A DNA stretch of 64,000 bases. It comes from Actinomycetes bacterium. Lineage in GTDB: Bacteria > Actinomycetota > Thermoleophilia > BMS3ABIN01. This document shows, one piece after another, positions 531 to 50,994 of this stretch. A program made the translations under genes and the position numbers. How positions within the stretch are numbered: the first letter of the stretch is position 1; every line of letters begins with the position of its first letter. The notes below the pieces were generated by a model. The model was not told where the DNA came from, did not search any database, and saw only the letters and a list, made by a program, of their open reading frames with translations. The DNA is taken from positions 16,602 through 80,601 of the forward strand of contig JAJYIM010000003.1 in the NCBI GenBank assembly GCA_021790115.1. Reading direction: 5' to 3'.

Positions 531-578
531 TTTGGGTTTCCCAATATCCAAAATCCACCATCCACAATCCGCTTTTAT
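531..578 (+). repeat. heptamer-tandem intergenic element copy A (ATCCAAA ATCCACC ATCCACA ATCCGC), upstream of metK
   Basis: Four ATCCANN heptamers in tandem ending ATCCGC. Same architecture as copies at 22.9, 39.7, 43.7, 46.1 and 48.3 kb. Confidence 0.6.
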
Positions 579-687
579 GGCTTTTAAAAGACGTTGCTGC
601 TAGACTTGAACGAAACTGTAATTCTCAAGCTCAGTCATCTTCCAAATCGTTGAGGGTGTGGAGGGCTGTTACTGTCTGGAGGCAGCC

Positions 688-1941
688 ATGGCGGAAAAAA
701 ATTACCTTTTCACTTCGGAATCAGTCACTGAAGGGCACCCTGATAAAATCGCCGATCAGATATCTGACGGCGTTCTCGACGCCGTTCTTAAGGATGACCC
801 GTTCGGCCGTGTCGCGTGCGAAACTCTGGTTACAACCGGTCTGGTTGTGGTTGGCGGCGAGGTTACGACCGAGACGTATGTTGACATTCCCAGGCTGGTG
901 CGCGAAACAATTCTTGACATAGGCTACACGCGCGCCAAATATGGCTTTGACGGTGACACCTGCGGGGTAATTGTCGCCCTGGATGAGCAGTCGCCTGATA
1001 TCGCTCAAGGTGTCAACCAGGCTTTTGAGGTCCGCACTGACGCAGACGACGAAGATCCACTCGATCTTCAAGGCGCAGGTGACCAGGGCATGATGTTTGG
1101 TTATGCCTGCAATGAGACGCCTGAGCTGATGCCGATGCCGATCCTGCTGGCCCACCAGCTGGGCAAGCGGCTGGCCGAGGCGCGCAAGAGCGGCGTGCTG
1201 CCGTATCTGCGCCCCGATGGCAAGACCCAGGTCACAGTCCGTTATGAAAATGACAAACCGGTGGAAATCCAGACCGTGGTTATCTCCACGCAGCATAAAC
1301 CGAATATTGACATTGAAACGATGCTAAAGCCCGACCTGATCGAGCATGTTGTGACGCCGGTCCTGCCGGAGTCAATGTACGACCCCAAGCAGATTCAAAT
1401 TCTGGTAAACCCCACGGGAAAGTTCGTCATCGGCGGCCCCATGGGCGACTGTGGCCTCACGGGACGGAAGATAATCGTGGATACCTATGGCGGCGCCGCC
1501 CGCCATGGCGGGGGAGCTTTCTCGGGCAAGGATCCGACTAAAGTGGACCGCTCCGCCGCTTATGCCTGCCGTTACGTGGCCAAGAATATCGTGGCGGCGG
1601 GTCTGGCGGAAAAGTGCGAAGTGCAGGTGGCTTACGCGATCGGCGTCGCTCATCCTGTCTCCATCATGGTCGAATGTTTTGGCACGGAGAAGATTGCCCT
1701 GGAGAAGATGAGGGATTTGATCAAAAAGCATTTTGACCTCCGGCCGGCCGCAATTCTGCGCGACTTGGATCTGCGGCGTCCTATCTACCAAAAGACGGCT
1801 GTCTATGGCCACTTCGGTCGCCATGACCACGATTTTACCTGGGAGCGCACCGACAAGGCCGAGGTCCTGCGCAGTGATGCCGGCTTGGCTAAGGCTGCCA
1901 AGCAGAAGGAAAGAGACGCCTCGTTGCGGGCAGTGGAATAG
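688..1941 (+). CDS. metK: S-adenosylmethionine synthetase
   Basis: [27 protein letters not shown]..., GHPDK motif, full-length MetK similarity. Start placed at the ATG giving MAEKNY; the ORF opens 30 nt earlier. Confidence 0.9.
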
Positions 1942-1990
1942 TATGGCAGATACTGGATACCGGATGCTGGATACTGGATAAACCGAGAAT
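1942..1990 (-). repeat. heptamer-tandem intergenic element copy B (reverse orientation), between metK and priA
   Basis: Reverse complement reads GGTTTATCCAGT ATCCAGC ATCCGGT ATCCAGT ATCTGCC. 7-nt periodicity. Confidence 0.6.
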
Positions 1991-2141
1991 CGGTCACCGG
2001 AAGGGCCCTATCCTTCTCGAGGTTTATGCTGAGCTTCGCGAAGCGCTCGGGATGAGAAGCCAATCATATGTTGAAATGGCGCCGGCCGGCGCCATTTTCA
2101 TGTGTGCCGTTGACGTCCGCGCCGCGGGTTATAATGATGGC

Positions 2142-4412
2142 ATGAATTCTGCTTCAGGGACTGCCGGCGTCCATATTCAGATCAAGACCCGTTCTCTGGA
2201 TAAGCCGTTCCACTATAGCGTGCCCTCTCGCCTGAGAGGCAAGTTGACGAAGGGCTCGGTAGTGCTAGTGCGGTTCGGCCGCCAGTGGGCACTGGGAATT
2301 GTGACATCGCTGGAGGTTTTACCAGGTCTGCCTCCGGCAAAGCTGGTTGATATTGAAGACATTGTAGACTATCCGGCCATCCCGGCCGCACTGATTGATC
2401 TGGCCCTTTGGATCTCCGAGTACTATTATTGCTCACCCGCTGCGGCCCTGGGGTTGACTTTGCCACCGGGTGGCTTGCCGGGCCTGAAGCGAGCTGAAAA
2501 TGGCGGTTATTTGCTGAAGGCAGCGCCGATTAAACCAAAAACCGCCAGGTTTGTACGCCTGACGGAGCCACGAGCCAATGAGGCGGGGGAGGGGAAGGCG
2601 CAGCGCCGCGTTCTGGATGTTCTTAACGATGCCGGAGATCTGCCACTGGCGGAGCTCCGCGGCCGGGCAGGGGTGAGCGCCTCGCCGGTACAGACACTGG
2701 CGCGCCGCGGACTGGTCGAGATTTACGAGACAAAAATCAGCCGCAGCTGGTCTCGCTATTACAGCGGCAAGCCGGGCGGGAGCGGGCAGGACACCGCTGA
2801 CATGAGGCCGCTTAAGCTGAACCCTCCCCAGCGGGCGGCGCTGAAGGCCATCGCCGCCCGTCTGGAAGAGCCGGATGAGCGTCAGCGGAGCCGCCCGATA
2901 CTCCTGCAAGGGGTAGCGGGAGCAGGCAAGACCGAGGTTTATATTCGTGGCATTGAGGCCGCGGTGAAACTTGGCGGATCGGCCATAATCCTGGTGCCGG
3001 AAATATCACTTACGCATCAGTTGATCAAACGCCTGCAGAGGCGGTTTGGCCTGCGCGTCGGAGTTTACCACAGCGCCCTTGGTTTCGGTGAGCGCTTTGA
3101 TGAATACTCGCGCATCCGGGCCGGAGAAGTTGACGTGGTCGTCGGCCCCCGCTCGGCTCTGTTTGCACCCCTGCCTCACTTGAAGCTGATCATTATTGAC
3201 GAGGAGAACGACAGCTCATTCAAGCAGGAAAACGACCCCCGTTACGACGCCCGCCGGGTAGCGCTGCAACGGGCACGGCTGGAGGGCGCGGTGTTGGTTT
3301 ATGGCACCGCCACTCCCAGCCTGGAGAGCTATTTCCGCGTGCGCGACCGCTACATTCTTCCGGAGCGGGCGACTGGAGCGGCGATGCCCGAGGTGGAAAT
3401 TGTTGACATGCGCAAGGAGAATGACATGGTATTCAGCCGTCGGCTGTTGGACGGCATAAACGCGGCGGTCGGCGCCGGTGAAAAGGTAATCCTGTTGCTT
3501 AACCGCCGCGGCTACGCCAGCTACCTGCAATGCAGTCATTGTGGTCATGTTTGGGAATGCGGTAACTGTGATGTTTCGTTAACTATTCATGCTCGTGCGC
3601 GAATGCTGCTCTGTCATCACTGCGGCGCCAGTGAGCCGCTGCCGCATACCTGCCCGGTTTGCGGCTCAGCCGGACTGCGGCGCTGGGGGGTGGGCACAGA
3701 ACGCCTGGAGGAAGAGCTCAGGCGCCGCTTTCCCGAAGCTCCCGTTTACCGCCTGGATGCAGACACTTCCCAGGGGTATGGCGAAGGCCCGCGCATTCTG
3801 GAAAAATTCGGCAGCCCCGGCGCCGCCGTGCTGCTGGGCACACAGATGGTGGCCAAGGGGCACCACTTTCCTGCCGTCACCCTGGCGGCAGTCATCAATG
3901 CCGATCTGGCTTTGCAGTTCCCGGAATTTAGGGCTGAAGAGCAGACTTTTGCCATTTTAATGCAGCTGGCAGGCCGCAGCGGCCGCGCCGACAAGCCGGG
4001 AAAAGTCCTGATCCAGACGTGGAATGCGGACATTGATTGTATTAAAATGGCCGCGAACCAGGCAGTTAACGAGTTTTACCAGGCAGAGCTTGAGCGCCGC
4101 CGGCGGTTGAGTTATCCGCCTTATATCAACCTGATTAACGTTATCTGTTTGTCGCGCAGTAACGGCCGGCCACGCCAGGCGGCTGAGTTTCTGAAGCAAA
4201 AGCTCGCGGCTGCCGCGGACGGGGAAAAGCTGCTGGGGCCGGCCGACTTGTTTCGCCTGCAGGGTTGGTCACGCAGTCAAATTTTGGTAAAGACATGTAA
4301 CATAGAGCGTTGCTTAGCCGCCTTCAGGCCTGTAGTCGAGAAATTCCGGCAGCCTTTTTCTGCAAAGGGAATCAGGATTGTGGTTGATGTGGATCCTCAA
4401 TGGCTGTCATGA
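2142..4412 (+). CDS. priA: primosomal protein N' (replication restart helicase PriA)
   Basis: Walker A GVAGAGKTEVYI, DEEN(H)-box IIIDEENDSSF, Cys4 zinc-binding cluster CSHCGHVWECGNC...CHHCG...CPVCG, ~760 aa. Alternative upstream start at 2052. Confidence 0.85.
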   Translation: MNSASGTAGVHIQIKTRSLDKPFHYSVPSRLRGKLTKGSVVLVRFGRQWALGIVTSLEVLPGLPPAKLVDIEDIVDYPAIPAALIDLALWISEYYYCSPAAALGLTLPPGGLPGLKRAENGGYLLKAAPIKPKTARFVRLTEPRANEAGEGKAQRRVLDVLNDAGDLPLAELRGRAGVSASPVQTLARRGLVEIYETKISRSWSRYYSGKPGGSGQDTADMRPLKLNPPQRAALKAIAARLEEPDERQRSRPILLQGVAGAGKTEVYIRGIEAAVKLGGSAIILVPEISLTHQLIKRLQRRFGLRVGVYHSALGFGERFDEYSRIRAGEVDVVVGPRSALFAPLPHLKLIIIDEENDSSFKQENDPRYDARRVALQRARLEGAVLVYGTATPSLESYFRVRDRYILPERATGAAMPEVEIVDMRKENDMVFSRRLLDGINAAVGAGEKVILLLNRRGYASYLQCSHCGHVWECGNCDVSLTIHARARMLLCHHCGASEPLPHTCPVCGSAGLRRWGVGTERLEEELRRRFPEAPVYRLDADTSQGYGEGPRILEKFGSPGAAVLLGTQMVAKGHHFPAVTLAAVINADLALQFPEFRAEEQTFAILMQLAGRSGRADKPGKVLIQTWNADIDCIKMAANQAVNEFYQAELERRRRLSYPPYINLINVICLSRSNGRPRQAAEFLKQKLAAAADGEKLLGPADLFRLQGWSRSQILVKTCNIERCLAAFRPVVEKFRQPFSAKGIRIVVDVDPQWLS

Positions 4413-4504
4413 ATATAGTCAACGGAAGGCTGAATGAAAGTAAAAGCCATCGTGGGCCCTGGATTGAAAATTTTGTTATGGCGATGTGGAAAAGGATTTA
4501 GCTA

Positions 4505-5032
4505 GTGGGGATTGATGAAAAAACCAAGGCAGCGGCCTGGCAGCAGATCAGGCAGTTCGGCGATCCGGTTTTAAAAGAAGAGTCGCGGCTGGCAAAGCCA
4601 GGCGTAGATATGCGGCAGCTGGCGGAACGCATGATCAAGATCATGTACGCGGCAGACGGCGTCGGCTTGGCGGCGCCGCAGATCGGGATCCTGCAAAAAA
4701 TCATCGTTTTCCGTTTCGGTAAAGACGAGCCCAAGGTGCTGCTAAATCCGGAGGTTACCTGGCGATCCGAAGAAGTCATCACAGAGCCGGAAGGCTGCCT
4801 CAGTCTCGCCAACCTCGCAGTCGATGTGCCTCGCGCCGCCAGCATCAAAGTCAAAGGGCAAGACCTCGATGGCGAGGAGCATGAGTATGAGCTGGAGGGC
4901 CTGCAGGCGCGCATCCTTCAGCACGAGATTGATCACTTAAACGGCGTCATGATAAACAGCCGCACCAGCAGGGAACAGCGCAAGGACCTGATGGCCCGGC
5001 TGAGACAGGTAAAACTCCCCGGCGAGCGGTAG
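4505..5032 (+). CDS. def: peptide deformylase
   Basis: Motifs GVGLAAPQIG, EGCLS and HEIDHLNG. GTG start. Directly followed by fmt. Confidence 0.9.
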   Translation: MGIDEKTKAAAWQQIRQFGDPVLKEESRLAKPGVDMRQLAERMIKIMYAADGVGLAAPQIGILQKIIVFRFGKDEPKVLLNPEVTWRSEEVITEPEGCLSLANLAVDVPRAASIKVKGQDLDGEEHEYELEGLQARILQHEIDHLNGVMINSRTSREQRKDLMARLRQVKLPGER

Positions 5033-5037
5033 ACCTG

Positions 5038-5979
5038 GTGAAAATTGCCTTTGCCGGCACACCCCGGTTTGGCGCCCTGGTGTTGGAGGCGCTTATCGCT
5101 TCCCGCCATAAGGTCGTGGTGGTGTTCGCCCAGCCGGACCGCCCCGCCGGACGCAGCCGCCGGGTGACGCTGCCGCCGGTCAAGAAACTGGCGCTTGCTG
5201 CCGGGCTGCCCGTGGAGCAGCCGGAAAGCATCAACTCCCCAGAGGCAATTTGGCTACTGGAAAAGCTCGACGTCAATATCTTGGTCATAGCTGCTTTCGG
5301 CCAGATTCTCAAAAATGACCTGCTGGATGCCGTTCCCTGCATTAACGTGCATGGCTCGCTGCTGCCCAAGTACCGGGGCGCGGCGCCGGCGGAGCGCGCC
5401 ATTATGAATGGGGAGCGGGAAACCGGGGCATCGATCATGAAAGTCGTGCTGGCGCTTGATGCCGGCGAGGTTTTCTTAAGGAAAAAAGTCATCATTGATG
5501 ATGAGGATGATGCCGGCTCCTTATCCGAAAAAGTGGCGCGGGCCGGGGGGGTAGCGCTGGTGGAAGTGCTTGACCAGTTCGAAGCCGGCGCGCAGAAAGG
5601 TGAAGCGCAGAATGAATCAAAAGCCACTTACGCCGGGAAAATCATGCCGGCCGAGCGCCGCATCAACTGGTCTTTGCCGGCCCGCCGGATATTTAATCAA
5701 GTGAGGGCTTTATCACCACATATCGGGGCCTTTTCAAAAATCGACGGCAAAGTGTTGAAAATCTGGCGGGTTGCCCCCGCCGCCGCGACAGCGCCGTCTG
5801 AGGGCGCATCCGTGGGCGCCGCCGGCGCGGCCGTCATCGACGGGGAAAAGCTTTACATCCGATGCGGCGACGGCCTGCTTGAGATTATCGGGCTGCAGCC
5901 GGGAGACAAACGGCGCATGAGCGCCGCTGAGTTTTTACGGGGTTACAACCGGTTAATTCGTGGCGCCATACTGCGCTGA
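5038..5979 (+). CDS. fmt: methionyl-tRNA formyltransferase
   Basis: MKIAFAGTPRFGALVLEAL... and formyltransferase core NVHGSLLPKYRGAAP. GTG start 6 nt after the def stop. Confidence 0.9.
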   Translation: MKIAFAGTPRFGALVLEALIASRHKVVVVFAQPDRPAGRSRRVTLPPVKKLALAAGLPVEQPESINSPEAIWLLEKLDVNILVIAAFGQILKNDLLDAVPCINVHGSLLPKYRGAAPAERAIMNGERETGASIMKVVLALDAGEVFLRKKVIIDDEDDAGSLSEKVARAGGVALVEVLDQFEAGAQKGEAQNESKATYAGKIMPAERRINWSLPARRIFNQVRALSPHIGAFSKIDGKVLKIWRVAPAAATAPSEGASVGAAGAAVIDGEKLYIRCGDGLLEIIGLQPGDKRRMSAAEFLRGYNRLIRGAILR

Positions 5980-6081
5980 GCGCCGCTGATTACGGTTTGT
6001 TATAATCTTTTTCGGTACGGGGACGGGGGTTTCGGGCAACTGCCGCACCTGTTTGACCCTGAAGTGGTTTATGAATAGAGC

Positions 6082-6158
6082 CGGGGCGTGGCGCAGCTTG
6101 GTAGCGCGCTTGCTTTGGGAGCAAGAGGCCGGCGGTTCAAATCCGCCCGCCCCGACCA
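6082..6158 (+). tRNA. tRNA-Pro: tRNA-Pro (anticodon TGG)
   Basis: Cloverleaf: acceptor CGGGGCG/CGCCCCG, D-arm GCGCAGCTTGGTAGCGC, anticodon stem CTTGC/GCAAG with loop TTTGGGA (anticodon UGG, G37), T-arm GGCGGTTCAAATCCGCC, discriminator A plus encoded CCA. Confidence 0.85.
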
Positions 6159-6230
6159 GGTTTTCTTCCTTAACCTGAGAATAGTAATATTCAACTTTTG
6201 TTAACGCCGGCTTTGGGCCAGCGCGCCTTT

Positions 6231-6399: not shown

Positions 6400-7317
6400 T
6401 CACTTGACGTCAATCACGACCTTGCCCTTGGGGTGAACCGTCTCCAGGAACGTCATCGCATCGCCGGCGGCATCAAGTGGGAACGTTTTTTCCACGTGCA
6501 CTTTAATGCTGTCTTCGTCCACCAGCTGCGCCAGCCTGCCCAGGCGCTCGGTAGTTATCTCAAAATGTTGATAAATGGCTCTAACCTGGTGCTTTTGCAT
6601 CAGCTCCTCGTCAGGATCTTCCAGCGAGGAAACAATCATTCCTCCCGGCTTTAAAACCTTAAGTGAGCGCCGGTAAACATCGCCGCCGACCAGGTCATAA
6701 GCTGCATCATAATCATGGATTATGTTTTCAAACCGCTGTGCTTTGAAATCAATGGCCTCGTTGGCGCCCACATCTCTTACGTAGTCAAATTCATCGGCTG
6801 CGCAGGTGACGGCCACGTAAGCGCCCTGATGCGTGGCGATCTGAACCGCAATGCTGCCGATGCCGCCGGCGCCTCCCTGGATGAGAATCTTCTTTTCCTC
6901 TGAAAGTTGAAAATACTCCGTCAGCGCCTGCACGGCCATGACGCCTGCCAGCGGCAATGCTCCGGCTTCCGTCTCGTTTATTGTTTTCGGTTTTAACGCT
7001 ACCGAACGCGGCTCGGCCAAGTCATACTTGGCGAACGACCCCGTGCCGCCGTTAAAAAATCAAGCCATGCCGTAAATCTCGTCGCCGGGGCGAAAGCCGG
7101 CCACATCCTTCCCCACCGCCGCGACTGTCCCGGCAAAGTCTCCTCCTAAAGTGGCGGGGAGCGGCGCCCCCATGCCGCCGGCGGTCCTGATTTTCCAGTC
7201 GAACGGATTAACGCCGGCTTCGTGAACTTCCACCAGCAACTTTCCAGGCGCGACGGCAGGCGGTAGTGCCCCTAATCCTGTGGAAAAACAAAATGGCGTA
7301 GAATTCCGGGTGAACAA
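6400..7317 (-). pseudogene. Zn-independent quinone oxidoreductase / MDR-family NAD(P)H oxidoreductase (Qor-like), interrupted by an in-frame TGA at 7060-7062
   Basis: N-terminal ORF (7063-7317: ...GAPLPATLGGDFAGTVAAVGKDVAGFRPGDEIYGMA) and C-terminal ORF (6400-7020: ...ILIQGGAGGIGSIAVQIA...) are in the same frame. They are separated only by one TGA codon: ...EIYGMA*FFNGGTGSFAKYDLAEPRS... The Rossmann GGAGGIG motif is intact. Confidence 0.7.
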
Positions 7318-22877: not shown

Positions 22878-22948
22878 TGGTTCAAAGTTTCAGGTTTAGG
22901 TTTTGTCCAGCATCCATAATCCAGCATCCAGCATCCGTTTACTCGTAC
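22878..22948 (+). repeat. heptamer-tandem intergenic element copy C, in the 61-nt nuoE-nuoF intercistronic gap
   Basis: GGTTCAAAGTTTCAGGTTTAGGTTTTGTCCAGC ATCCATA ATCCAGC ATCCAGC ATCCGTTTACTCG. Confidence 0.7.
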
Positions 22949-23403
22949 TTATCAAGGATCTCGCCGATTCTGTCCGGGTCGACGTTGGTGTGCAAATCTT
23001 CGTCGATCATCATTGCCGGCGCCCGGTCGCAGGCGCCCAGGCAGACAACCGGCAAAAGAGTGAAGCGGCCGTCTGCGGTTGTCCGGCCCGGGTCGACTCC
23101 GAGGCAGCCGGCAATGTGGCTCATCAACTTCTTCGAATCCATCAGCCAGCAGCTGACGCTGTCACAGGCGAGGATCACGTGCCTGCCCACAGGCCGTCTG
23201 AATATCAAGTTGTAGAAGCTGGCGGTTCCGTCCAGCTCGGCAATGGGCATCTCCAGCAGTTTGCTCAGCTCAGCGATGGCCTCGTCAGAAACCCATCCCT
23301 GGTGGCGCTGCACTATCCTGAGGGCGTCGATGGCGGCTGCCTGCCTGACCGGGTAAGGAGCCATTGCCGCTTCTATTTCCATTTTTACTTCTCTTTTTAA
23401 CAT
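22939..23403 (-). CDS. nuoE: NADH-quinone oxidoreductase subunit E (2Fe-2S)
   Basis: Thioredoxin-like 2Fe-2S motif ACDSVSC...VVCLGACDRAP. 154 aa. Confidence 0.9.
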   Translation of the reverse strand: MLKREVKMEIEAAMAPYPVRQAAAIDALRIVQRHQGWVSDEAIAELSKLLEMPIAELDGTASFYNLIFRRPVGRHVILACDSVSCWLMDSKKLMSHIAGCLGVDPGRTTADGRFTLLPVVCLGACDRAPAMMIDEDLHTNVDPDRIGEILDKYE

Positions 23404-38323: not shown

Positions 38324-39745
38324 ATGCTGGACAAAATACAGAACTCCATACCAGGTATAAGCACCAAAGTGGCTTTGTCACGCGGCATAGTTGCTCTCAG
38401 CGGCCGGATTGGCCATGGCGGCACAACGCTTCCCGGGCGCGTCGTCCGCGTTCTGGACGGCGATATTGCCCCGCGCCTGGGACGCAAGCTGGATCAGGGA
38501 TGCGTACTCGTTTCAGCAACCAATGGTAAAACTACAACCAGCGCCATGATTGCCGCGATTTTAAAAGAAAGCGGTCTGGTTGTAGCTAGGAACCGGGAGG
38601 GAGCCAATCTGGCGGCAGGGGTGGCCACAGCACTGCTGAAGAACGCCTCTTTGGCGGGCAGGCCCACTGCCGATATCGGCCTATTTGAAGTTGACGAGGC
38701 CGTATTTCCCGCGATAGCCGGGCAGCTTGATCCCCGGGCAGTGTTGCTTATGAACCTGTTCAGGGACCAGCTCGACCGCTATGGAGAGCTTGAGCATATT
38801 GCAGACATGTGGCGGGATGCAGTAAAGAAACTGGATCAGCGCCGGACAATCGCGATCGTCAACGCTGATGATCCCCTGGTGGCGGAAATGTCGAAGCTGA
38901 AGCGGGACGCCTTCCTTTGTTTCGGTATTGAGGACTCAACCGCCGGCGGCCTTGTCATGCAGCATGCATCCGACTCAAAGTACTGCACTGTTTGCGGAAC
39001 GCCGTTCAAATATGAAGTCCTTTTCATGGGGCATCTGGGCAAATACCACTGTCCAAATTGCGGCAACCGGCGCCCCTCCCCAACCATTTTTGCCGAAAAC
39101 GTGCATTTGGACGGCATGCGCGGCTCCTCTTTTGACCTGGTTACGCCAGATTGGCGCCAGGCTGTCGCTGTTGCCCTGCCCGGCCTTTACAACGTCTATA
39201 ACGCTCTGGGCGCAGCTGCCTGCTGTTTTGGCCTGAAGGTGGCTCCAGACCAAATCAAAAACGGCCTGAAGTCTTTTGGCGCTGCCTTTGGCAGAGTTGA
39301 GCGGCTGATAATTGGCGAAAAGAAAGTCTGCCTGCTTCTTGTAAAAAATCCCGCCGGTTTTAACGAGGTCGTGCGCACCCTCCTGATCGAGCCGGGCCAA
39401 AAAAACCTGCTGCTGGCATTAAATGACAAGATTGCCGACGGACGCGACATCTCATGGATCTGGGACGTTGACCTGGAGGCGCTGGCCGGCGAGGTGCTGA
39501 GTGCCACCTGCAGCGGCACCAGGGCCGCCGAAATGGCGATGCGGCTAAAATACGCCGGCCTGAACGCAAAAACGCTTAAGGTCAGGCCAGATCTTAAAAC
39601 GGCCCTCAGGGTGGCCCTGGCCCATACAAAGGATGATGAAACACTCTACGTGCTGCCTACCTATACAGCCATGCTGGCCCTCAGGCAGACCATCCACAAG
39701 CATTTTCAGACCGAAAATGAAATGGCAGACCTGGTATGGAAGTAA
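38324..39745 (+). CDS. murT: Mur-ligase-family lipid II isoglutaminyl synthase subunit MurT
   Basis: Mur ligase ATP-binding VSATNGKTTTSAMIA. MurT-specific Cys4 ribbon YCTVCGTPF...YHCPNCG. C-terminal DUF1727-like region. 473 aa. Confidence 0.8.
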   Translation: MLDKIQNSIPGISTKVALSRGIVALSGRIGHGGTTLPGRVVRVLDGDIAPRLGRKLDQGCVLVSATNGKTTTSAMIAAILKESGLVVARNREGANLAAGVATALLKNASLAGRPTADIGLFEVDEAVFPAIAGQLDPRAVLLMNLFRDQLDRYGELEHIADMWRDAVKKLDQRRTIAIVNADDPLVAEMSKLKRDAFLCFGIEDSTAGGLVMQHASDSKYCTVCGTPFKYEVLFMGHLGKYHCPNCGNRRPSPTIFAENVHLDGMRGSSFDLVTPDWRQAVAVALPGLYNVYNALGAAACCFGLKVAPDQIKNGLKSFGAAFGRVERLIIGEKKVCLLLVKNPAGFNEVVRTLLIEPGQKNLLLALNDKIADGRDISWIWDVDLEALAGEVLSATCSGTRAAEMAMRLKYAGLNAKTLKVRPDLKTALRVALAHTKDDETLYVLPTYTAMLALRQTIHKHFQTENEMADLVWK

Positions 39746-39805
39746 ACCGGATGCTGGATGGTGGATGGTGGACAAACCCGAAACCTTAAACCCGAAACCG
39801 AAGTA
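39745..39805 (-). repeat. heptamer-tandem intergenic element copy D (reverse orientation) between murT and gatD
   Basis: Reverse complement reads CGGTTTCGGGTTTAAGGTTTCGGGTTTGTCCACC ATCCACC ATCCAGC ATCCGGTTTAC. Confidence 0.7.
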
Positions 39806-42359: not shown

Positions 42360-42562
42360 CAGCCTGGAACCTCTTCATTTTTTTGAATTGTAGGAATCAT
42401 ACAACAATTTTACTTCTGCGAGCGCCATACCGCGGTTCCCCGGAAGACGGCCAAGGCGGTGTTTCAAGGAACAGCGAAAATTTGCTAGAATAAGAAATTG
42501 TAGCGTAATGGAGCTCGATTTTACCGTGACGCAATCGGTTCCTAGCGCTATCTTTCGCATGA

Positions 42563-42588
42563 GCCGGGGCGCGCCGCGCCCCGGCCTT
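42563..42588 (-). terminator. GC-rich palindromic hairpin immediately downstream of the ispG stop
   Basis: GCCGGGGCGCG(C)CGCGCCCCGGC, ~10 nt after the ispG stop codon. No strong U-tract. Confidence 0.35.
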
Positions 42589-42594
42589 ATGCTG

Positions 42595-43665
42595 TTAAGG
42601 TCGGGAGGCACGCTGACTTTGCCGCGCTTTTTCGATCTCCTCAAAGAGAGCCTCCACCAGCAGGGCGGCGGGCGCTTTTTTCACCGGCTTCCCGTGTGCG
42701 AAAATGAGGCCCTCTCCCCTGCCGCAGGCGATGCCGAAATCGGCATGGCGGGCCTCGCCGGGTCCATTGACAACGCAGCCCATCACTGCTACTTCAAAAC
42801 TGGAGCCGTACTCTTGCAGCCGTTGTTCAACCTGAAGTGCAATTGCTTCCACGTCAACCTCGCTTCTGCCACATGTAGGACATGCTATTAAATTGGGACC
42901 GCGCTGGCGCAGCCCCAGGCTCTTCAGGATTTCATAAGCGGCCCGGACTTCTTCAACGGGGTCACCCGTCAGCGACACCCTGATCGTGTCCCCCACTCCT
43001 TGAGCCAGGAGCGCCCCGATACCGACGGCGCTTTTGACAACGCCGGCCCTGATGGTGCCCGCCTCCGTTATCCCGAGATGGATCGGGTAGCTGATGCCGG
43101 CCGCCAGAGCCAGGTTGGTGTCAATAGTCTCGCGCACGGATGATGACTTAGCCGACACCTTGAATTCTGTAAATCCGAGATCCTCAAACATATGCACGTA
43201 TTCAAGCGCAGTGTTAACCAGCGCCTGAGACCGGTCCCTTTCCGCCAGCTGGCACATTTCTTTTGGCAGGGAGCCAGAGTTGACGCCGATGCGAATGGGC
43301 GCCGCAGCTTCCTGGGCGGCTTTGATTACTTCCGCCACCTTCGCGCGGCTGCCGATGTTGCCGGGATTAATGCGCACCCCGGCCGCGCCCGCAGCCAGGG
43401 CGCCAACCGCCAGCCGCGCATGAAAGTGAACGTCCGCCACAACCGGCAGTGGCGACTCGGCGATGATTCCCCCCAGTTGGCTCAGGGCGGCTTCATCAGG
43501 CAAGGCCACGCGCACGATCTCGCAGCCGTAAGCCGCCAGGCTGCGGATCTGGCCCAGGGTGGCTTCGGCGTCGCGGCTGTCGGTATTGGTCATTGACTGC
43601 ACCGACACCGGCGCACCACCGCCAACGGCAACATTGCCTACATGGATTTGGATTTTGCTGGCCAT
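42595..43665 (-). CDS. ispG: 4-hydroxy-3-methylbut-2-en-1-yl diphosphate synthase (GcpE)
   Basis: VGNVAVGGGAPVSVQSMTNTDSRDAEATLGQI..., C-terminal 4Fe-4S Cys ligands (CPTCGR...C). 356 aa. Confidence 0.9.
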   Translation of the reverse strand: MASKIQIHVGNVAVGGGAPVSVQSMTNTDSRDAEATLGQIRSLAAYGCEIVRVALPDEAALSQLGGIIAESPLPVVADVHFHARLAVGALAAGAAGVRINPGNIGSRAKVAEVIKAAQEAAAPIRIGVNSGSLPKEMCQLAERDRSQALVNTALEYVHMFEDLGFTEFKVSAKSSSVRETIDTNLALAAGISYPIHLGITEAGTIRAGVVKSAVGIGALLAQGVGDTIRVSLTGDPVEEVRAAYEILKSLGLRQRGPNLIACPTCGRSEVDVEAIALQVEQRLQEYGSSFEVAVMGCVVNGPGEARHADFGIACGRGEGLIFAHGKPVKKAPAALLVEALFEEIEKARQSQRASRP

Positions 43666-43830
43666 AATGAGACTAGTTCCGAGTTCCGAAAGATTATAAC
43701 GATTGTTTTCTATTTATCAAGTGAATTTCTGGTTTTAGGTTTTTATCCAGCGTCCATGATCCAGGATCCACCATCCGGGTTTTTGTGTTTATCCACCATC
43801 CACCATCCAATGTCCGGTTTACGGATTTAG
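43666..43830 (+). repeat. heptamer-tandem intergenic element copy E (tandemly duplicated core) between rseP and ispG
   Basis: AGTTCCGAGTTCCGAAAG...GGTTTTAGGTTTTTATCCAGC GTCCATG ATCCAGG ATCCACC ATCCGGGTTTTTGTGTTTATCCACC ATCCACC ATCCAAT GTCCGGTTTACGG. Two heptamer arrays in tandem. Confidence 0.75.
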
Positions 43831-46042: not shown

Positions 46043-46047
46043 AATCT

Positions 46048-46127
46048 CTGCCCGAGTTTAAAGTTCCAAGTTTAGGGTTGGTTAAATCCATCATCCAGGA
46101 TCCAGGATCCACCATCCGGTTTCACGT
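46048..46127 (+). repeat. heptamer-tandem intergenic element copy F between cdsA and dxr
   Basis: GAGTTTAAAGTTCCAAGTTTAGGGTTGGTTAA ATCCATC ATCCAGG ATCCAGG ATCCACC ATCCGGTTTCACG. Confidence 0.75.
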
Positions 46128-46916
46128 TTATCTTCCCACCATGGCGGTCACGATGTAATAAGCCGCCACTGCGGCAAACAGGAGGGAGTCAAAGCGGTCC
46201 AGGATGCCGCCATGCCCCGGAATTATCGTACCCGCATCCTTGACTTGCGAAGCCCGTTTCACGTAAGACTCGAACAGGTCGCCCAACGGCGCGGCAATGG
46301 CAAGGACAAGACCAAGAACAAAAAACTGGCCCGAGGTCATCCATCCCAGCGACTTGCCCGCCACCAGCACCACCAGAATCGTTCCCAGAAAGCCGGCCAA
46401 AGTTCCCTCGACGGTCTTCTTCGGCGAGACCACCGGGGAAACCTGATGCTGGCCGTAAAAATGCCCCACGGCGTAAGCCACGGTGTCGGATGTCCAGGTA
46501 GCAAGCAGGACGACAATAGCCAGGCTGATGCCGTAGGCGGGGTTTCGCAAGAGCAACAGGTGAGCGAAGCCAACACTGACATAAAAAGAACCAAAGAAAG
46601 TGACCGCCATTTCTTCCACCATTTCCGGCCTCAGGCCCCGGATGGCATGAAAGAGAAACGTTACGCCAAAAAGCAGCACAGCGCCACGCAGTGCGCCTTC
46701 AAGCTGGCCGGTATAAGCACCCAGCAAGATAAAGACTGCGCCCAGATAGCCGGCCAGACGGACCGGCTTGTATTTCCTCGTCATCCGGTAAAATTCATGC
46801 AGCCCCAGCAAAGTCAGCAATATCAGGGAAACCAGCAGGGCAATGCCGCCGGTGTAAATGACTATGATTGCCAGGGGAACGCCCAGGATGCCAATTAAGG
46901 CCCTCGTGATCAGCAT
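46128..46916 (-). CDS. cdsA: phosphatidate cytidylyltransferase
   Basis: 262 aa polytopic membrane protein. C-terminal CTP-transferase signature ...SYVKRASQVKDAGTIIPGHGGILDRFDSLLF. Confidence 0.85.
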   Translation of the reverse strand: MLITRALIGILGVPLAIIVIYTGGIALLVSLILLTLLGLHEFYRMTRKYKPVRLAGYLGAVFILLGAYTGQLEGALRGAVLLFGVTFLFHAIRGLRPEMVEEMAVTFFGSFYVSVGFAHLLLLRNPAYGISLAIVVLLATWTSDTVAYAVGHFYGQHQVSPVVSPKKTVEGTLAGFLGTILVVLVAGKSLGWMTSGQFFVLGLVLAIAAPLGDLFESYVKRASQVKDAGTIIPGHGGILDRFDSLLFAAVAAYYIVTAMVGR

Positions 46917-46922
46917 GGCCGC

Positions 46923-47666
46923 CTACCGGGCTCCAAAACGGCGGCTGCGAAAATTGAATTCATCGAAGGCGGCAGCCAGATCATCCAGCCCAAAGTCGGG
47001 CCACAATTTGTCGGAAAAGTAAAGCTCGCTATAGGCGCATTGCCACAGGAGAAAATTGCTTATTCTTTGCTCGCCGCTGGTGCGGATCAGCAACTCGGGG
47101 TCGTGCATCTCTGGCGCATACAGAAACTTTGCAAATTCCGGCTCGCCGCCGGTAAAGCCGTAGGCGGCGGCCGTCCGCGCCGCATCCGCGATCTCGGCCC
47201 GGCCTCCATAATTGAACGCCACGTACAAGCTCATGGCACAGTTGGCGCCGGTGAGGCTCTCCGCCCAGTCGATCTGGCCGCGGACGCCCGCCGGCAGTTC
47301 GGCGCGCCGGCCGATAAACCTGACCCGCACCTGCTGCTCGTGAAGCTCAGGCACTTCCTTTTTTATCAGCTCACTGAACATTTCCATTAGCGCATCAACC
47401 TCTGTTTTTGGCCGCCGCCAGTTTTCGGTTGAAAAAGCATAGACGCTCAGCTCGCGGACGCCAGCCTTGCGAGCAGCGCGTATCGTGCGCTTTAGCGCCT
47501 TGGCGCCTTCCCGATGCCCGGCGATGGCCGGCAGCTGCCTGCGCTCCGCCCAGCGGCCATTGCCATCCATAATCACGGCCACATAACGCGGCCCGCCGGT
47601 CAATAAAAAATCTTCGCGTCTGGATTTCCGCCGGCGAAGATTCTTGAGGAGGTAAAACCAGCTCAT
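46923..47666 (-). CDS. uppS: undecaprenyl diphosphate synthase (cis-prenyltransferase)
   Basis: HVAVIMDGNGRWA and ...SVYAFSTENWRRP motifs. 247 aa. Confidence 0.9.
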   Translation of the reverse strand: MSWFYLLKNLRRRKSRREDFLLTGGPRYVAVIMDGNGRWAERRQLPAIAGHREGAKALKRTIRAARKAGVRELSVYAFSTENWRRPKTEVDALMEMFSELIKKEVPELHEQQVRVRFIGRRAELPAGVRGQIDWAESLTGANCAMSLYVAFNYGGRAEIADAARTAAAYGFTGGEPEFAKFLYAPEMHDPELLIRTSGEQRISNFLLWQCAYSELYFSDKLWPDFGLDDLAAAFDEFNFRSRRFGAR

Positions 47667-47667
47667 C

Positions 47668-48234
47668 TTACACCTCCAGGATCTCCGCCTCCTTGTGTTT
47701 GAGCAGGTCGTCGATCTGCTTCACGTGCTCGTCCGTGACTTTCTGCAACTCATCTTCCGCCCAGTGAAGCTCGTCCTCGGAAATCTCTCCTTCTTTTTGC
47801 AACTTCTTGATCTCATGAATGACGTCGCGGCGGATATTCCTGACGGCAATACGCCCGTTTTCCGCCAGGCCTTTAACAACTTTTACCAGCTCGCGGCGGC
47901 GCTCCTCAGTCAGCTCCGGGATTGACAGGCGGACTACATTTCCATCATTGTTTGGGTTGAGCCCCAGCTCTGACTCCATAATTGCATGCTCGATCTCCTT
48001 GATGACAGCCTTGTCATAAGGGGTGATAACCAGCAGCCGTGCTTCCGGGGAGCTAATGTTGGCCAATTGCTTCAGCGGCGTCCTGGCTCCGTAATAATCT
48101 ACAGTGATGCGGTCCAGCAAGGTGGTGGAGGCCCGGCCGGTGCGAATGGAATTAAACTCGTTCTGGCAGGCGGCGACGGTCTTATTCATCCGCTCCCCCC
48201 CGTCATTCAGGAATTCCTCCACCATTTCATTCAT
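47668..48234 (-). CDS. frr: ribosome recycling factor
   Basis: 188 aa, ...RTGRASTTLLDRITVDYYG...LSIPELTEERRRELVK... Confidence 0.9.
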   Translation of the reverse strand: MNEMVEEFLNDGGERMNKTVAACQNEFNSIRTGRASTTLLDRITVDYYGARTPLKQLANISSPEARLLVITPYDKAVIKEIEHAIMESELGLNPNNDGNVVRLSIPELTEERRRELVKVVKGLAENGRIAVRNIRRDVIHEIKKLQKEGEISEDELHWAEDELQKVTDEHVKQIDDLLKHKEAEILEV

Positions 48235-48249
48235 GCAACCCTGCCCTTT

Positions 48250-48325
48250 ATTAATTGCAACCAGGATTAATTATAATCCAATATCCAATATCCAACGTCC
48301 AACAGCCAAAGTCCGGTTTACGATC
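48250..48325 (+). repeat. heptamer-tandem intergenic element copy G between pyrH and frr
   Basis: CCAGGATTAATTATA ATCCAAT ATCCAAT ATCCAAC GTCCAAC AGCCAAA GTCCGGTTTACG. Confidence 0.7.
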
Positions 48326-49073
48326 TTACTATCGTTCCCGCCCTTTCGCCAGACAGCACCCGCTGGATGTTTTGCCTGTCGGCCATATTAAATACAAAAA
48401 TGGGCAGCTTGTTGTCCATACAGAGCGACAACGCAGTGGTATCCATCACCTTCAGGCCGCGCTCGATTGCCTCCAAATGCGTGACCTCGGGCAAGAAGGC
48501 TGCCTGGGGGTTGACTTCCGGATCGGAATCATAAACGCCATCGAACTTGCGCTTCGCCATCAGGATTGCCTCGGCATTTATCTCAAGGGCCCGCAACGCC
48601 GCGGCGGTATCTGTGGTGAAGTAGGGATTCCCGGTGCCAGCTGCAAAGATGACAACCCGCTTTTTTTCCAAATGGCGGATAGCGCGCCGGCGGATGTACG
48701 GTTCAGCTACCTCTTGCATGTGAATCGCGGAAAGCACGCGGGTCTCCAGGTTTATTTTTTCCAGGCCATCCTGAAGCGCGAGGGCGTTAAGGACAGTGGC
48801 AATCATGCCCATGTAGTCACCGGTGGCGCGGTCCATGCCGTGGGCGCTGCCGGCGACCCCGCGGAAAATATTGCCGGCGCCAACGACAATGGCAATTTCT
48901 ACCTGGCGCGCAGCCGCCGCATTGATCTGCTCGCAAATTGAATTAATCTTTTCAGGGTCGATGCTGTGCCGGTCTTCACCTTGAAGCGCCTGGCCTGAAA
49001 GCTTGATCAACACCCGCCTGAAGACAGCCGGTGCAGCAGCCTGGCCGGTCGAAGATCTGGTGCTTCCGGACAA
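48318..49073 (-). CDS. pyrH: UMP kinase
   Basis: ...RVLIKLSGQALQG...VVGAGNIFRG... amino-acid-kinase fold. 251 aa. Confidence 0.9.
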   Translation of the reverse strand: MSGSTRSSTGQAAAPAVFRRVLIKLSGQALQGEDRHSIDPEKINSICEQINAAAARQVEIAIVVGAGNIFRGVAGSAHGMDRATGDYMGMIATVLNALALQDGLEKINLETRVLSAIHMQEVAEPYIRRRAIRHLEKKRVVIFAAGTGNPYFTTDTAAALRALEINAEAILMAKRKFDGVYDSDPEVNPQAAFLPEVTHLEAIERGLKVMDTTALSLCMDNKLPIFVFNMADRQNIQRVLSGERAGTIVRS

Positions 49074-49670
49074 CTAGCCCTTGCCCAGCTCGAAGCGGGC
49101 GAACCGCTTGATCTCGATGTTCTCACCCAGTTTCCCGACCAGCTCTCCCCGCAGCTGTTCGACTGTCAACTTATCGTCCTTGACAAAAGGCTGCTCCAGG
49201 AGGCAGACCTGCTGGTAGTATTTATCCAGCTTCCCCTGGGCAATTTTTTCGAGGATGTTTTCAGGCTTGCCGGTTTCCCTGGCTTGCTCCTTGTAAATGC
49301 AGAGCTCTGCCTCTGTCTCGTCGGCGGGCACGTCATCGCGGCCGACATACTTGGGGTCTGCGGCCGCCACGTGCATGGCGACATCGTGAACGAAAGTCTT
49401 AAATTCCCCCGTTTTGGCAACAAAATCAGTCTCACAGCCAATCTCGACAAGAACCCCAATTTTGCCGCCGGCATGGATATAGCTGTCAACCAGTCCCTGG
49501 GTAGTCGTGCGGCCGCTGCGTTTTGCGGCAGCGGCAAGGCCTTTGGTCCTCAACAGCCGCACAGCCTCCTCAACGTCGCCGCCTGATTCCGCCAGGGCTT
49601 TCTTGCAATCCATCATTCCGGCCCCGGTCTGGTCCCGCAGTTGTTTTACTTCTTTGGCGCTAACTGCCAC
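49074..49670 (-). CDS. tsf: translation elongation factor Ts (short form)
   Basis: MAVSAKEVKQLRDQTGAGMMDCKKALAESGGDVEEAVRLLRTKG... UBA-like N-terminus. 198 aa. Confidence 0.9.
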   Translation of the reverse strand: MAVSAKEVKQLRDQTGAGMMDCKKALAESGGDVEEAVRLLRTKGLAAAAKRSGRTTTQGLVDSYIHAGGKIGVLVEIGCETDFVAKTGEFKTFVHDVAMHVAAADPKYVGRDDVPADETEAELCIYKEQARETGKPENILEKIAQGKLDKYYQQVCLLEQPFVKDDKLTVEQLRGELVGKLGENIEIKRFARFELGKG

Positions 49671-49705
49671 TTGAACACCTCGCTGGCTTCCATGCTTTCT
49701 GGCTT

Positions 49706-50782
49706 CTATTCCTGTTCCTTGTTTTCTGTTTGTTTGCCACCCTCATCGCCGGCTTTCTTTTCATCATCCGCGGCCGCCTTTGGCTTTCTCATTGAAGGAG
49801 CCTTACTTTTTGACGGGCCAGTTTTTGACTTGGCGACAGCCTTAGGCTTAACTTGAGCTTTGGCAGCAGATGCTTTCCCCTGCTTGGCATCAGTTTTTTC
49901 TGCTTTCGCCGCCGGCTTCCGGGCCGTTTTTACCGGGGCATCTGCTTTCGCCGGGGCGGCTTCCCCTTTTGCTCCGGCGCCGGCTCCTGCCGCGGCGGCC
50001 ATTTCTGCCTGGGTCTTGACGGTTTCCTCAGCCGCAGCCTTCGCTTCAGCTTCTTGCTTGGCGGCGGCGGCCGCGGCCGCCTGCACCTCTTTCTCCAAAA
50101 AGAGTTGCCTGCCCTCAACGACGCCATCGGCGATAGCCCTGATAATGAGGGCGCAGGAACGAATGGCGTCATCGTTTCCAGGAATGACGAAATCGACTTC
50201 GTCAGGATTGCAGTTGGTATCAACCAACGCCACCACCGGCACCCCCAGCTTCCTGGACTCGCGAATTACAATGGTCTCGCGGCGCGGGTCGATCACAAAC
50301 ACGGCCGCCGGCAGCTTATCCATGTCTGCCACGCCGCCCAGGTTTTGCTCCAGTTTGCGCAGCTCTGCCAGCCGGTTCATCTGCTCTTTGGTGGGAAGGA
50401 GGTCGAGCTGGCCCTCGTCCCGCAGCCGCCGCAATTCATGCATCATTTTGATGCGCTGAGAAATCGTCGCATAGTTGGTAAGAAGACCTCCCAGCCAGCG
50501 GTGGGAAACAAAGGGCATGCTGGCCCGCTGCGCTTCTGCGGTGATGGTGTCCTGGCACTGTTTCTTGGTGCCCACAAACAGCACCATTTTGCCATCGGCG
50601 GCCAGCCCCCGGACGAAGTCGTACGCTTCCTCAATCAGCCTGATCGTCTTTTGCAGGTCGATGATGTAGATCCCGCCGCGCTCCGTGAAGATGTAAGGCT
50701 TCATGCGCGGATTCCAACGGCGGGTCTGGTGTCCGAAGTGGACGCCTGATTCCAGCAGTTCCTTCATTGTTACAGCAGGCAA
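49706..50782 (-). CDS. rpsB: 30S ribosomal protein S2 with ~110-aa Ala/Lys-rich C-terminal extension
   Basis: MPAVTMKELLESGVHFGHQTRRWNPRMKPYIF... S2 core (~245 aa). Low-complexity tail AAAAAAAKQEAEAKAAAEE...KAQVKPKAVAKSK... Confidence 0.9.
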   Translation of the reverse strand: MPAVTMKELLESGVHFGHQTRRWNPRMKPYIFTERGGIYIIDLQKTIRLIEEAYDFVRGLAADGKMVLFVGTKKQCQDTITAEAQRASMPFVSHRWLGGLLTNYATISQRIKMMHELRRLRDEGQLDLLPTKEQMNRLAELRKLEQNLGGVADMDKLPAAVFVIDPRRETIVIRESRKLGVPVVALVDTNCNPDEVDFVIPGNDDAIRSCALIIRAIADGVVEGRQLFLEKEVQAAAAAAAKQEAEAKAAAEETVKTQAEMAAAAGAGAGAKGEAAPAKADAPVKTARKPAAKAEKTDAKQGKASAAKAQVKPKAVAKSKTGPSKSKAPSMRKPKAAADDEKKAGDEGGKQTENKEQE

Positions 50783-50994
50783 ACCGAGATCCTTTCACTC
50801 GACTTTAAATTGCCGCTCCTCGACTGGCGGCTGCGGCAGGGCGGCTTCCGCCGCAGCGTTTTTTGCATTCAAACACGGGCGACGGCCATGTGGCCGCGCC
50901 TAGAGCTACGGTATTTTAACATATAAAAAAGTTCCGAGTTTTGAGTCCGCCCCGCAACCGCCGGCTGCGGGGCATGTATGATAGCCTACACGGC

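Follow-up and report, generated by a model that had tools for sequence, protein, structure and literature searches.

Why should the short gaps between genes of deeply conserved operons be filled with tandem heptamers, and to what class of element do such repeats belong? The question is raised by a 64,000-nt stretch of an uncultured Actinomycetes bacterium (assembly GCA_021790115.1, contig JAJYIM010000003.1, positions 16,602 to 80,601; hereafter, the window), in which a previous reading, made from the sequence only, recognized a dispersed family of intergenic elements built from ATCCANN heptamers and ascribed to them a role at the level of RNA. Several lines of evidence, including periodicity, enrichment, restriction to a sub-clade and turnover of units at fixed sites, indicate that these arrays are probably a lineage-specific family of heptanucleotide long simple sequence repeats (SSRs), resembling the STRR sequences of cyanobacteria, which entered intercistronic gaps, turned over by slippage in a 7-nt register and were sorted by selection into two tolerated configurations. 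The family does not constitute a new RNA class, and it does not belong to the REP, MITE or MIRU elements.

A regular-expression scan of the window recovered eight ATCCANN arrays in seven intergenic gaps, six on the + strand and two on the - strand, at the places where the sequence-only reading had put them. Tandem Repeats Finder returned a period of 7 at every copy, in agreement with the exact periodicity claimed there; the ATCC core of the heptamer is invariant, and two or three positions vary. With at most one mismatch, the pattern ATCCNNNATCCNNNATCC matches 20 times in the 64 kb, against 0.24 expected from dinucleotide-preserving shuffles of the window (0 of 100 shuffles reach 20), so that the enrichment over shuffled sequence is upheld. 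A second pattern, of the GTTTNNN type (GTTTNNNGTTTNNNGTTT), has eight matches against 0.18 expected, six of them within elements. Copy 7 is identical in an independent assembly (L001), and two Logan contigs of SRR13170411 show no difference from the window. The copies are as follows.

Copy 1, hisF/metK gap: 524..580, + strand, array at 546-573 (+); arm GCTTTGGGTTTCCCAAT, units ATCCAAA ATCCACC ATCCACA ATCCGCT (546-573), flank TTTATGG.
Copy 2, metK/priA gap: 1942..1993, - strand, array at 1948-1982 (-); on the mRNA UAG UAUGGCAGAUACU GGAUACC GGAUGCU GGAUACU GGAUAAA CCGAGAA UCGG; it begins 4 nt past the metK stop codon.
Copy 3, nuoE/nuoF gap: 22878..22941, + strand, array at 22905-22939 (+); on the mRNA UAA AC GGAUGCU GGAUGCU GGAUUAU GGAUGCU GGACAAA ACCUAAA CCUGAAA CUUUGAA CCA AUG.
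Copy 4, murT/gatD gap: 39743..39804, - strand, array at 39746-39773 (-); on the mRNA UAA ACC GGAUGCU GGAUGGU GGAUGGU GGACAAA CCCGAAA CCUUAAA CCCGAAA CCGAAGU, followed by a 28-nt non-periodic stretch with AAGAGGA and then the gatD AUG.
Copy 5a, ispG-proximal half of the rseP/ispG gap: 43730..43779, + strand, array at 43745-43779 (+); arm TGGTTTTAGGTTTTT, units ATCCAGC GTCCATG ATCCAGG ATCCACC ATCCGGG.
Copy 5b, rseP-proximal half of the same gap: 43780..43823, + strand, array at 43791-43818 (+); TTTTTGTGTTT, units ATCCACC ATCCACC ATCCAAT GTCCGGT, then TTAC, whose TTA (43819-43821) is the rseP stop codon read on the opposite strand.
Copy 6, cdsA/dxr gap: 46054..46130, + strand, array at 46086-46120 (+); arm GAGTTTAAAGTTCCAAGTTTAGGGTTGGTTAA, units ATCCATC ATCCAGG ATCCAGG ATCCACC ATCCGGT, then TTCACGTTTA, which ends in the cdsA stop codon.
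Copy 7, pyrH/frr gap: 48262..48322, + strand, array at 48276-48317 (+); units ATCCAAT ATCCAAT ATCCAAC GTCCAAC AGCCAAA GTCCGGT, then TTTAC with the pyrH stop codon.

In the original description each element consisted of a left arm, a set of repeats and a right flank. The copies are real, but this division does not survive inspection: when the gaps are cut into heptamers from the stop codon, the arm proves to be 7-periodic and in the same register as the ATCC units, and the element is thus one continuous heptamer tract instead of repeats with unrelated flanks. The flank, CCGGTTTAC, is well kept in copies 3, 4, 5b, 6 and 7 but loose in copies 1, 2 and 5a; it is the reverse complement of G-UAA-ACCGG and holds the TAA stop of the upstream gene in copies 3, 4, 5b and 7. 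Read in the sense of the mRNA, the layout runs from the stop codon through AC(C), four to six GGAUNNU units and two to four AAACYNN units to the next start codon. With four to six units of the ATCC type per array, whole tracts comprise 8-12 units, of the form GGAUNNU at the 5' end and changing gradually to AAACYNN or GAAACUN toward the 3' end, and separate loci have boundaries in common (UAA-AC(C)GGA at the 5' end and, at the other junction, GGTTT meeting ATCC). In the nuoE/nuoF gap, all 61 nt amount to 8.5 heptamers. Adjacent units share their variable triplet six times, against 2.3 expected when units are shuffled (P=0.015), which is the signature of unit duplication by slippage.

The placement of the tracts follows rules. 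NCBIfam confirms the identities of hisF, metK, priA, nuoE, nuoF, murT, gatD, proS, ispG, rseP, dxr, cdsA, uppS, frr, pyrH, tsf and rpsB, in agreement with the gene names and the strictly intergenic positions given earlier, and Pfam assigns housekeeping functions to the remaining genes of the window. The window contains about 30 intergenic gaps of at least 40 nt, and elements occupy 7 of the 20 that are co-directional and none of the 10 that are divergent or convergent (hypergeometric p=0.038). The G-rich GGAU strand is on the mRNA in six of the seven gaps, with the tract starting 0-9 nt after the stop codon, and the hisF/metK gap is the exception. This six-to-one count had been offered as an argument for function; the count is right, but the argument is weak, given a two-sided p=0.125 in the window and p=0.23 for roughly 8 of 11 independent gaps across genomes.

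The exception itself is instructive. In copy 1 the ATCC strand is the mRNA sense, as previously stated, and some 25 nt separate this promoter-proximal copy from TGCTAGACT, the downstream extended -10-like box of metK; however, the hisF/metK array has the ATCC sense in all three genomes (the window, L206 and L207), directly upstream of a TGnTAGACT extended -10 box, and thus represents a conserved second configuration. The metK/priA gap of L206 has a second array, also in the ATCC sense, about 35 nt upstream of the priA -10 box. Such positions bring in the possibility that the repeats act as DNA, either as an array of operator or nucleoid-protein sites or as an SSR that modulates promoters. Copy 1 with its orthologues and the second L206 array, all some 25-35 bp upstream of -10 boxes, would suit this idea, as would CGGAACT repeats that adjoin the rpsB and ispG promoters in two genomes; yet most copies are internal to operons, where promoter-like sites are lacking, neighbouring sites spaced by 7 bp would point to different faces of the helix, and the units are not conserved between genomes. 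We therefore regard either form of action on the DNA as highly improbable. The flank TTTAC was considered as a -35 box and rejected, its spacing to the -10-like boxes being unsuitable. Three features outside the ATCC arrays belong with these observations.

43693..43720, - strand: promoter-like TTGATA-16-TATAAT (11/12 matches) before ispG, in the non-repeat part of the rseP/ispG gap and a neighbour of the repeat; it is the only good promoter-like site among the element gaps.
43675..43689, + strand: AGTTCCG twice (CGGAACU CGGAACU on the mRNA), 9 nt upstream of the ispG AUG; a member of the GRAACUN unit superfamily, conserved in L003.
50924..50950, + strand: arm-type unit fragment AAGTTCCGAGTTTTGAGTCC in the divergent region between rpsB and the CoA-binding protein gene, conserved in L003 and adjoining the rpsB extended -10 box TGTTAAAAT.

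The last of these had been listed as a degenerate partial left arm; it is present, and is a fragment of the GGTTT/AGTTC unit type. The motif CGGAACU(C)GGAACU is kept in the window and L003 at two places, before the ispG AUG and just upstream of the rpsB -10 box, and could be an operator or leader motif instead of mere repeat debris.

To establish whether the family is old or recent requires relatives in which the same gaps can be inspected. The nearest genomes are the metagenome-assembled genomes (MAGs) 'Thermoleophilia bacterium B_ACT_02' (L002) and 'Actinomycetes bacterium DBS2-1.bin96' (L003), whose dxr products are 83-84% identical to that of the window, all others being at most 63% identical; a search with cdsA delimits a lineage of about 55 clusters at 69% identity or above, after which identity drops to 47%. 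Five more distant members (L200-L204; cdsA 69-80% identical) keep the gene order from rpsB to proS and have no arrays there. Their cdsA/dxr gaps measure 2-31 nt, the rseP/ispG gap is close to 15 nt in three members and 66-177 nt in the other two, L203 and L201, and murT and gatD overlap wherever they are still adjacent. The ancestral overlap reads GGTATGGAAGTAAGAATC. In the window, by comparison, ATGGAAGTAA is followed by ACCGG, the element and then ATGGAACTAAGG, and the 10-nt overlap ATGGAAGTAA is present on both sides of the insert. Copy 4 is thus an insertion accompanied by duplication of the overlap, the one clear case in which two overlapping genes were split, and it is common to the window and L003. 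By these comparisons the elements are recent, having entered gaps that were formerly short or overlapping.

Array density tells the same story of restriction to a lineage, which the earlier reading had surmised: 12.5 per 100 kb in the window, 14.2 in L003 and 5.7 in L206, as against none in the 99 kb from distant members of the lineage and 0.11 in 946 kb from other phyla. Intergenic autocorrelation at lags 7 and 14 is raised to 0.28-0.30 in every genome of the sub-clade but flat in distant relatives (0.254) and in other phyla.

Within the sub-clade, the same gaps hold different numbers or types of units, which is the kind of variation for which a comparison of related genomes had been proposed. 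The rseP/ispG gap has one array in L003 and two in the window; at murT/gatD, L003 retains a 14-nt double unit; and the pyrH/frr array of L003 is inverted relative to that of the window and adjoins the frr start codon. Directly after the metK stop, L206 has GGGUGGA and GGAUGGU units where the window has GGAUACU units, and in L207 the metK/priA array is decayed. The genome of B_ACT_02 (L002, L207) has no ATCC units, and instead carries ACGTTTC or GTGAAAC arrays immediately after TGA stop codons. In L208 and L209 the arrays occur as inverted pairs, in the order stop, (AGTTTCN)n, loop, (NGAAACT)n, start, which fold into long hairpins; hairpins also form at hisA/hisF in L207 (z -3.3) and at cdsA/dxr in L002 (z -2.7). 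The gaps of relatives with hairpins, for which z ranges from -2.3 to -6.0 overall, are these.

L208:3272-3362, hairpin gap.
L209:7387-7479, hairpin gap.
L209:8790-8891, hairpin gap.
L207:8755-8870, hairpin gap.
L002:9910-10005, hairpin gap.

At the base of each hairpin the stop codon of the upstream gene comes to lie next to the start codon of the downstream gene, and no Shine-Dalgarno sequence is visible before the start. The right half of these hairpins is the counterpart of the arm in the window elements, which on the mRNA reads AAACYNN or GAAACUN, and CUGGAUA differs from CUGGAAA by a single base. From this we infer that the GGAU units arose as a derived variant within a single GRAACUN superfamily. 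The lineage offers a clean natural series, in which empty gaps, inverted hairpin arrays and linear GGAU arrays are found at the same positions in essential conserved operons.

The elements of the window itself are without structure. On both strands, the predicted folding of the element gaps is no better than that of shuffled sequence (z -0.36 to +1.13), there are no inverted or terminal inverted repeats in the elements apart from incidental GGATCC palindromes in copy 6, and no terminator-like sites lie within the element gaps. A hairpin or REP-like structure is ruled out by these z-scores and the lack of inverted repeats; with no RNA structure present, a covariance model could represent nothing beyond the sequence. 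Searches of Rfam at the gathering threshold and at E<=1 found nothing over the elements, the sole match in the window being a tRNA at 6082-6155. MIRU-like coupling through small open reading frames (ORFs) in the arrays was also considered, and discarded on the ground that neither frame nor length is conserved between copies. The unit GCUGGAU is similar to what we take to be the 3' region of 16S rRNA (GCUGGAUCACCUCC), a segment that presumably lies partly in helix 45 in the ribosome; on the mRNA the array is identical, not complementary, to it.

One alternative explanation is that the tracts are functional cis-acting RNA. The GGAUNNU units would serve as a single-stranded platform for a GGA-binding protein of the CsrA-like, KH or S1 type, the AAACYNN arm would be a ribosome landing site independent of the Shine-Dalgarno sequence, and the relative expression of neighbouring cistrons would be set by coupling, re-initiation or differential decay. 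Besides the sense orientation in six of seven gaps and tracts that start close behind the stop codon, this model draws on the finding that nuoF and ispG have no Shine-Dalgarno sequence and that the arm reaches the AUG, on the retention of arrays at the same gaps in L003 and L206, and on elements that are at least as unstructured as shuffled controls. The hairpins of relatives juxtapose stop and start codons, a geometry suited to translational coupling, and the same idea has been raised for TAACTGA repeats (PMC4679880). Opposed to it are the lack of significance of the orientation bias, the inversion of the pyrH/frr array in L003, and unit sequences that differ between genomes (GGAU, ACGUUUC, AGUUUCN); moreover, distant relatives run the same essential operons without any array, and no candidate binding protein was found in the sequence examined. 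RNAs that titrate CsrA/RsmA present A(N)GGA motifs in hairpin loops, in genomes that encode csrA; GGAU motifs are present here, in unstructured form. Taken together, a role as a single-stranded platform or spacer is possible, but we consider the full model, the main rival to the SSR account, rather unlikely; the series of hairpin and linear forms in sister genomes makes it testable.

Another explanation is that the elements are non-autonomous mobile elements of an undescribed type, which would insert immediately behind stop codons or at targets resembling GTTTA/TAAAC and duplicate about 10 bp there, the arrays being their cargo or scar. Such mobility would account for the composite architecture and the boundary motifs common to separate loci, the doubling of ATGGAAGTAA around the murT/gatD insert, the independent filling of formerly tiny gaps and the opposite orientations at pyrH/frr in two genomes, and two unrelated metagenome contigs have TAAACCGGA(C/T)+(NNTGGAT)n after an ORF stop. 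But the elements have no terminal inverted repeats or sub-terminal hairpins, and the duplication is seen at one site only, where it represents the sole type of insertion into an overlap that could survive. By NCBIfam and Pfam, the genes of the window include no transposase, reverse transcriptase or obvious RNA-binding partner, and in the roughly 64 kb of the window plus about 170 kb of relatives there is no transposase, reverse transcriptase or RAYT, bar one unrelated recombinase in L209. The copies are also too divergent to be products of recent transposition. We judge this origin to be quite unlikely.

What the elements do resemble is a phenomenon known from other phyla. Heptanucleotides are the commonest class of long SSRs, Actinobacteria are among the richest genomes, and polymerase slippage has been proposed as the mechanism (Mrazek 2007, to the extent summarised in PMC4679880). 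The GGGAATC repeats of Xanthomonas and the GGGGA(C/T)T repeats of Nostoc occupy hundreds of dispersed intergenic loci, typically with about four units (Rehm et al. 2015, PMC4692102). They are favoured between aligned ORFs and under-represented between divergent ones, and lie next to the 5'-neighbour ORF, sometimes overlapping its stop codon; their G-rich strand is either the coding strand, 0-50 nt from the stop or overlapping it, or the non-coding strand just upstream of an ORF (PMC4692102). Related genomes have the same gaps occupied by repeats that differ in length and sequence, with occasional inverted pairs, and there is no link to mobile-element genes and no known function, although formation of G-quadruplexes (G4) has been proposed (PMC4692102). 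The arrays of the window are likewise tandem 7-nt repeats in non-coding DNA between co-directional genes, adjacent to stop codons and variable between relatives, in which inverted pairs also occur. They differ in having NNTGGAT / GRAACTN units with two degenerate positions and GG tracts only, in their composite tracts, which join two unit types in a constant order and have a boundary motif in common, and in their host lineage. It is the match in placement rules that leads us to read the family as heptanucleotide long SSRs or STRR-like repeats. The 7-nt units stand head to tail, the loci are dispersed and more numerous than chance allows, and unit number or sequence varies at the same locus, as judged on rseP/ispG, metK/priA, murT/gatD and hisF/metK against L003, L206 and L207. 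The sequence-only reading had assigned the elements to no named family. They are indeed not REP, BIME, ERIC, MIRU or an Rfam family, but the statement overlooks the heptanucleotide long SSRs, the STRRs and the GGGAATC/GGGGAYT repeats (PMC4692102, PMC4679880). What is new here is a lineage-specific ATCCANN / GGTTTNN version of the heptamer-repeat phenomenon known from cyanobacteria and Xanthomonas.

Given this likeness, the G4 proposal deserves consideration for the present family: four or more GG tracts on the transcribed strand would form a G4 of two tetrads, in RNA or DNA, through which transcription, decay or translation is modulated. The four to six units of each array reach the minimum for a G4, the G-rich strand is the coding strand after stop codons as in the published repeats (PMC4692102), and, when G4 energies are included, the minimum-energy structures that ViennaRNA computes for copies 4 and 5 and for the L206 metK/priA array contain a G4, as do 0-9 of 100 shuffles. 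The prediction extends to only three of nine arrays, however, and most units have GG only, so that stable G4s of the kind expected from G3-4 tracts do not apply to NNTGGAT units and the two-tetrad form would be weak. The corresponding positions of sister genomes are occupied by units other than G-rich ones (ACGTTTC, AGTTTCN), which means that G4 formation cannot explain the family as a whole; it was rejected as a general explanation, and we think it very unlikely to be the basis of the family.

The cyanobacterial STRR heptamers of Calothrix and Nostoc, reportedly described by Mazel et al. in 1990, have the units CCCCAGT, TTGGTCA and CAACAGT. Like them, the sub-clade has several families of heptamer units in one lineage, tandemly amplified, dispersed in non-coding DNA and lineage-restricted, but the units here are unrelated and the phylum is different. 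To our knowledge, placement from stop codon to start codon is not described for STRRs.

Other known systems share single features with the tracts. The TAACTGA direct repeats of marine Beggiatoaceae, cyanobacteria and Bacteroidetes abut start codons that lack ribosome-binding sites (MacGregor 2015, PMC4679880). Those repeats (2-6 copies, oriented with the downstream gene) compare with the AAACYNN arm that abuts the nuoF and ispG starts, but the unit differs, and TAACTGA arrays are pure and on the start-codon side only, whereas the tracts here are composite. MIRUs, too, have an actinobacterial host, operon intercistronic gaps, a bias toward one orientation, contact with stop and start codons and a variable tandem copy number; yet they are units of 46-100 bp with small ORFs that overlap the flanking stop and start, and the unit here is 7 nt with no reading frame preserved. 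REP and BIME elements are similarly short, abundant and intercistronic, and the inverted pairs of relatives give comparable hairpins (z down to -6.0), but the window elements are direct repeats without a palindrome, and no RAYT transposase was found; palindromes are confined to the inverted array pairs of L002, L207, L208 and L209. As for MITEs, terminal inverted repeats are lacking in the window elements and the duplication of about 10 bp was seen at murT/gatD only.

If the family is of the SSR type, its history can be reconstructed as follows. Tracts entered intercistronic gaps that originally measured 0-30 nt or overlapped, in a narrow sub-clade of an uncultured lineage of Actinomycetota (MAGs labelled Thermoleophilia or Actinomycetes), and would then have grown, shrunk and been homogenised by replication slippage in a 7-nt register. 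Copies that damaged genes or promoters may have been removed by selection, such that two configurations survive: one in which the G-rich strand is transcribed and the tract runs from the stop codon of the upstream gene, and one in which the C-rich strand is transcribed and a promoter or start codon follows closely behind the tract. As part of an mRNA, the version in the window would be a single-stranded spacer that lacks structure and has an A/C-rich 3' part running up to the next start codon.

Several observations weigh against so simple a history. TAA precedes five of the six sense elements but only 17 of 58 other genes (p=0.016), and no Shine-Dalgarno sequence was found before nuoF, within the gap of copy 3, or before ispG; both hint at a role in termination or initiation. 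We considered the stop codon as an intrinsic part of the element and rejected it: the rule holds for TAA in this genome, yet the arrays of relatives follow TGA, TAG and TAA alike, so that the TAA association is not a feature of the family. In-situ slippage leaves unexplained the shared boundaries and the fixed order of unit types at unrelated loci, which call for a copy-and-paste step of dispersal, and this dispersal would have proceeded with no inverted termini, hairpin or linked enzyme in the sequence examined. Furthermore, arrays persist in the same gap and the same orientation in genomes whose proteins differ by 6-17%, a divergence at which neutral intergenic DNA is expected to be unrecognizable. 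Their persistence could mean selection for function, although concerted evolution of the arrays could provide another account. The comparison covers only about 100 kb of sub-clade sequence, short of whole genomes.

On a further reading, the tracts could be self-propagating intercistronic spacer modules that have become domesticated, in which the hairpins of relatives couple stop and start translationally, and the ribosome, or an RNA-binding protein of heptad periodicity, reads the linear GGAU form. We view this as improbable. Unit number would tune expression ratios in nuo, in the isoprenoid/rpsB-proS cluster and in murT-gatD; the linear GGAU form would have arisen when the 5' half was swapped for a non-complementary array; and spread would need a mobility mechanism with neither inverted termini nor a hairpin. 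Whether the family is a set of long SSRs, as we favour, or something more, the lineage makes two questions testable, namely the effect of an array on the expression ratio of neighbouring cistrons and the route by which a repeat with no inverted termini reaches new sites.

The family also has practical consequences for the annotation of MAGs, in which the arrays inflate intergenic gaps and create spurious ORFs (43642-43830 and 22903-23400). On the wrong strand, ORFs made or extended by arrays occur at 43642-43830(+), 22903-23400(+) and 1733-1981(+), and compete with nuoE and rseP in naive ORF calling.

Outside the lineage, the generic pattern (ATCCANN, 3.5 units) is of little use. Among the matches listed from viral contigs are perfect heptamer SSRs with unrelated flanks, many from one phage family; these are unrelated SSRs, and ATCCANN arrays as such are thus not diagnostic. 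That phage family (L069, L072, L074-L076 and many more; IMGVR_UViG_3300045988_*) has a perfectly conserved (ATCCAGA)4 between identical flanks, ...GCGCCCGTAATCCA(ATCCAGA)4AGAAGAAGTAGGCGGCGAGCC..., with the unit number ranging from 3 to 5 in a few members. A flank-anchored scan of a metagenome collection from which the lineage itself is almost absent returned 11 loci, two of them genuine look-alikes (GC 47%) on unrelated contigs.

L195:513-640: a sense-strand array, TAAACCGGA(C/T)(NNTGGAT)n, that comes after the stop codon of an ORF; the ORFs on its two sides are co-directional, and heptamers of the GTTT type (CCAGTTT) follow it.
L196:6640-6700, - strand: the same arrangement, also on the sense strand and downstream of an ORF stop codon.

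The architecture is thus not strictly unique to the sub-clade; its density is. Its sporadic occurrence elsewhere reflects either horizontal spread or convergence.

Four further observations concern other features. The proS/ispG gap (42360-42594, - strand sense) contains a GC-rich hairpin resembling a terminator, GCCGGGGCGCGGCGCGCCCCGGC, and after it a block of some 60 nt, CATGCGAAAGATAGCGCTAGGAACCGATTGCGTCACGGTAAAA..., which L002 and L003 retain almost unchanged although the intergenic DNA around it has diverged; the block is without a match in Rfam and may be a small RNA or a proS leader. A zinc-type alcohol dehydrogenase is split into two ORFs on the - strand (6400-7020 and 7060-7317, with ADH_N and ADH_zinc_N / ADH_zinc_N_2 domains), probably by a frameshift, by pseudogenization or through an assembly error. 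The rpsB gene (49706-50782, - strand) encodes a 358-aa S2 protein with a long C-terminal extension, which also matches the NCBIfam 'sunset domain variant' model at 297 bits, well below the cut-off of 710. Finally, in one of the array-free relatives a phage-like block (L202:16071-20798; HNH_3, PDDEXK_1, AAA_24 and SMC-like) stands downstream of proS in place of gatD-murT, and proS may be a hot spot of integration.

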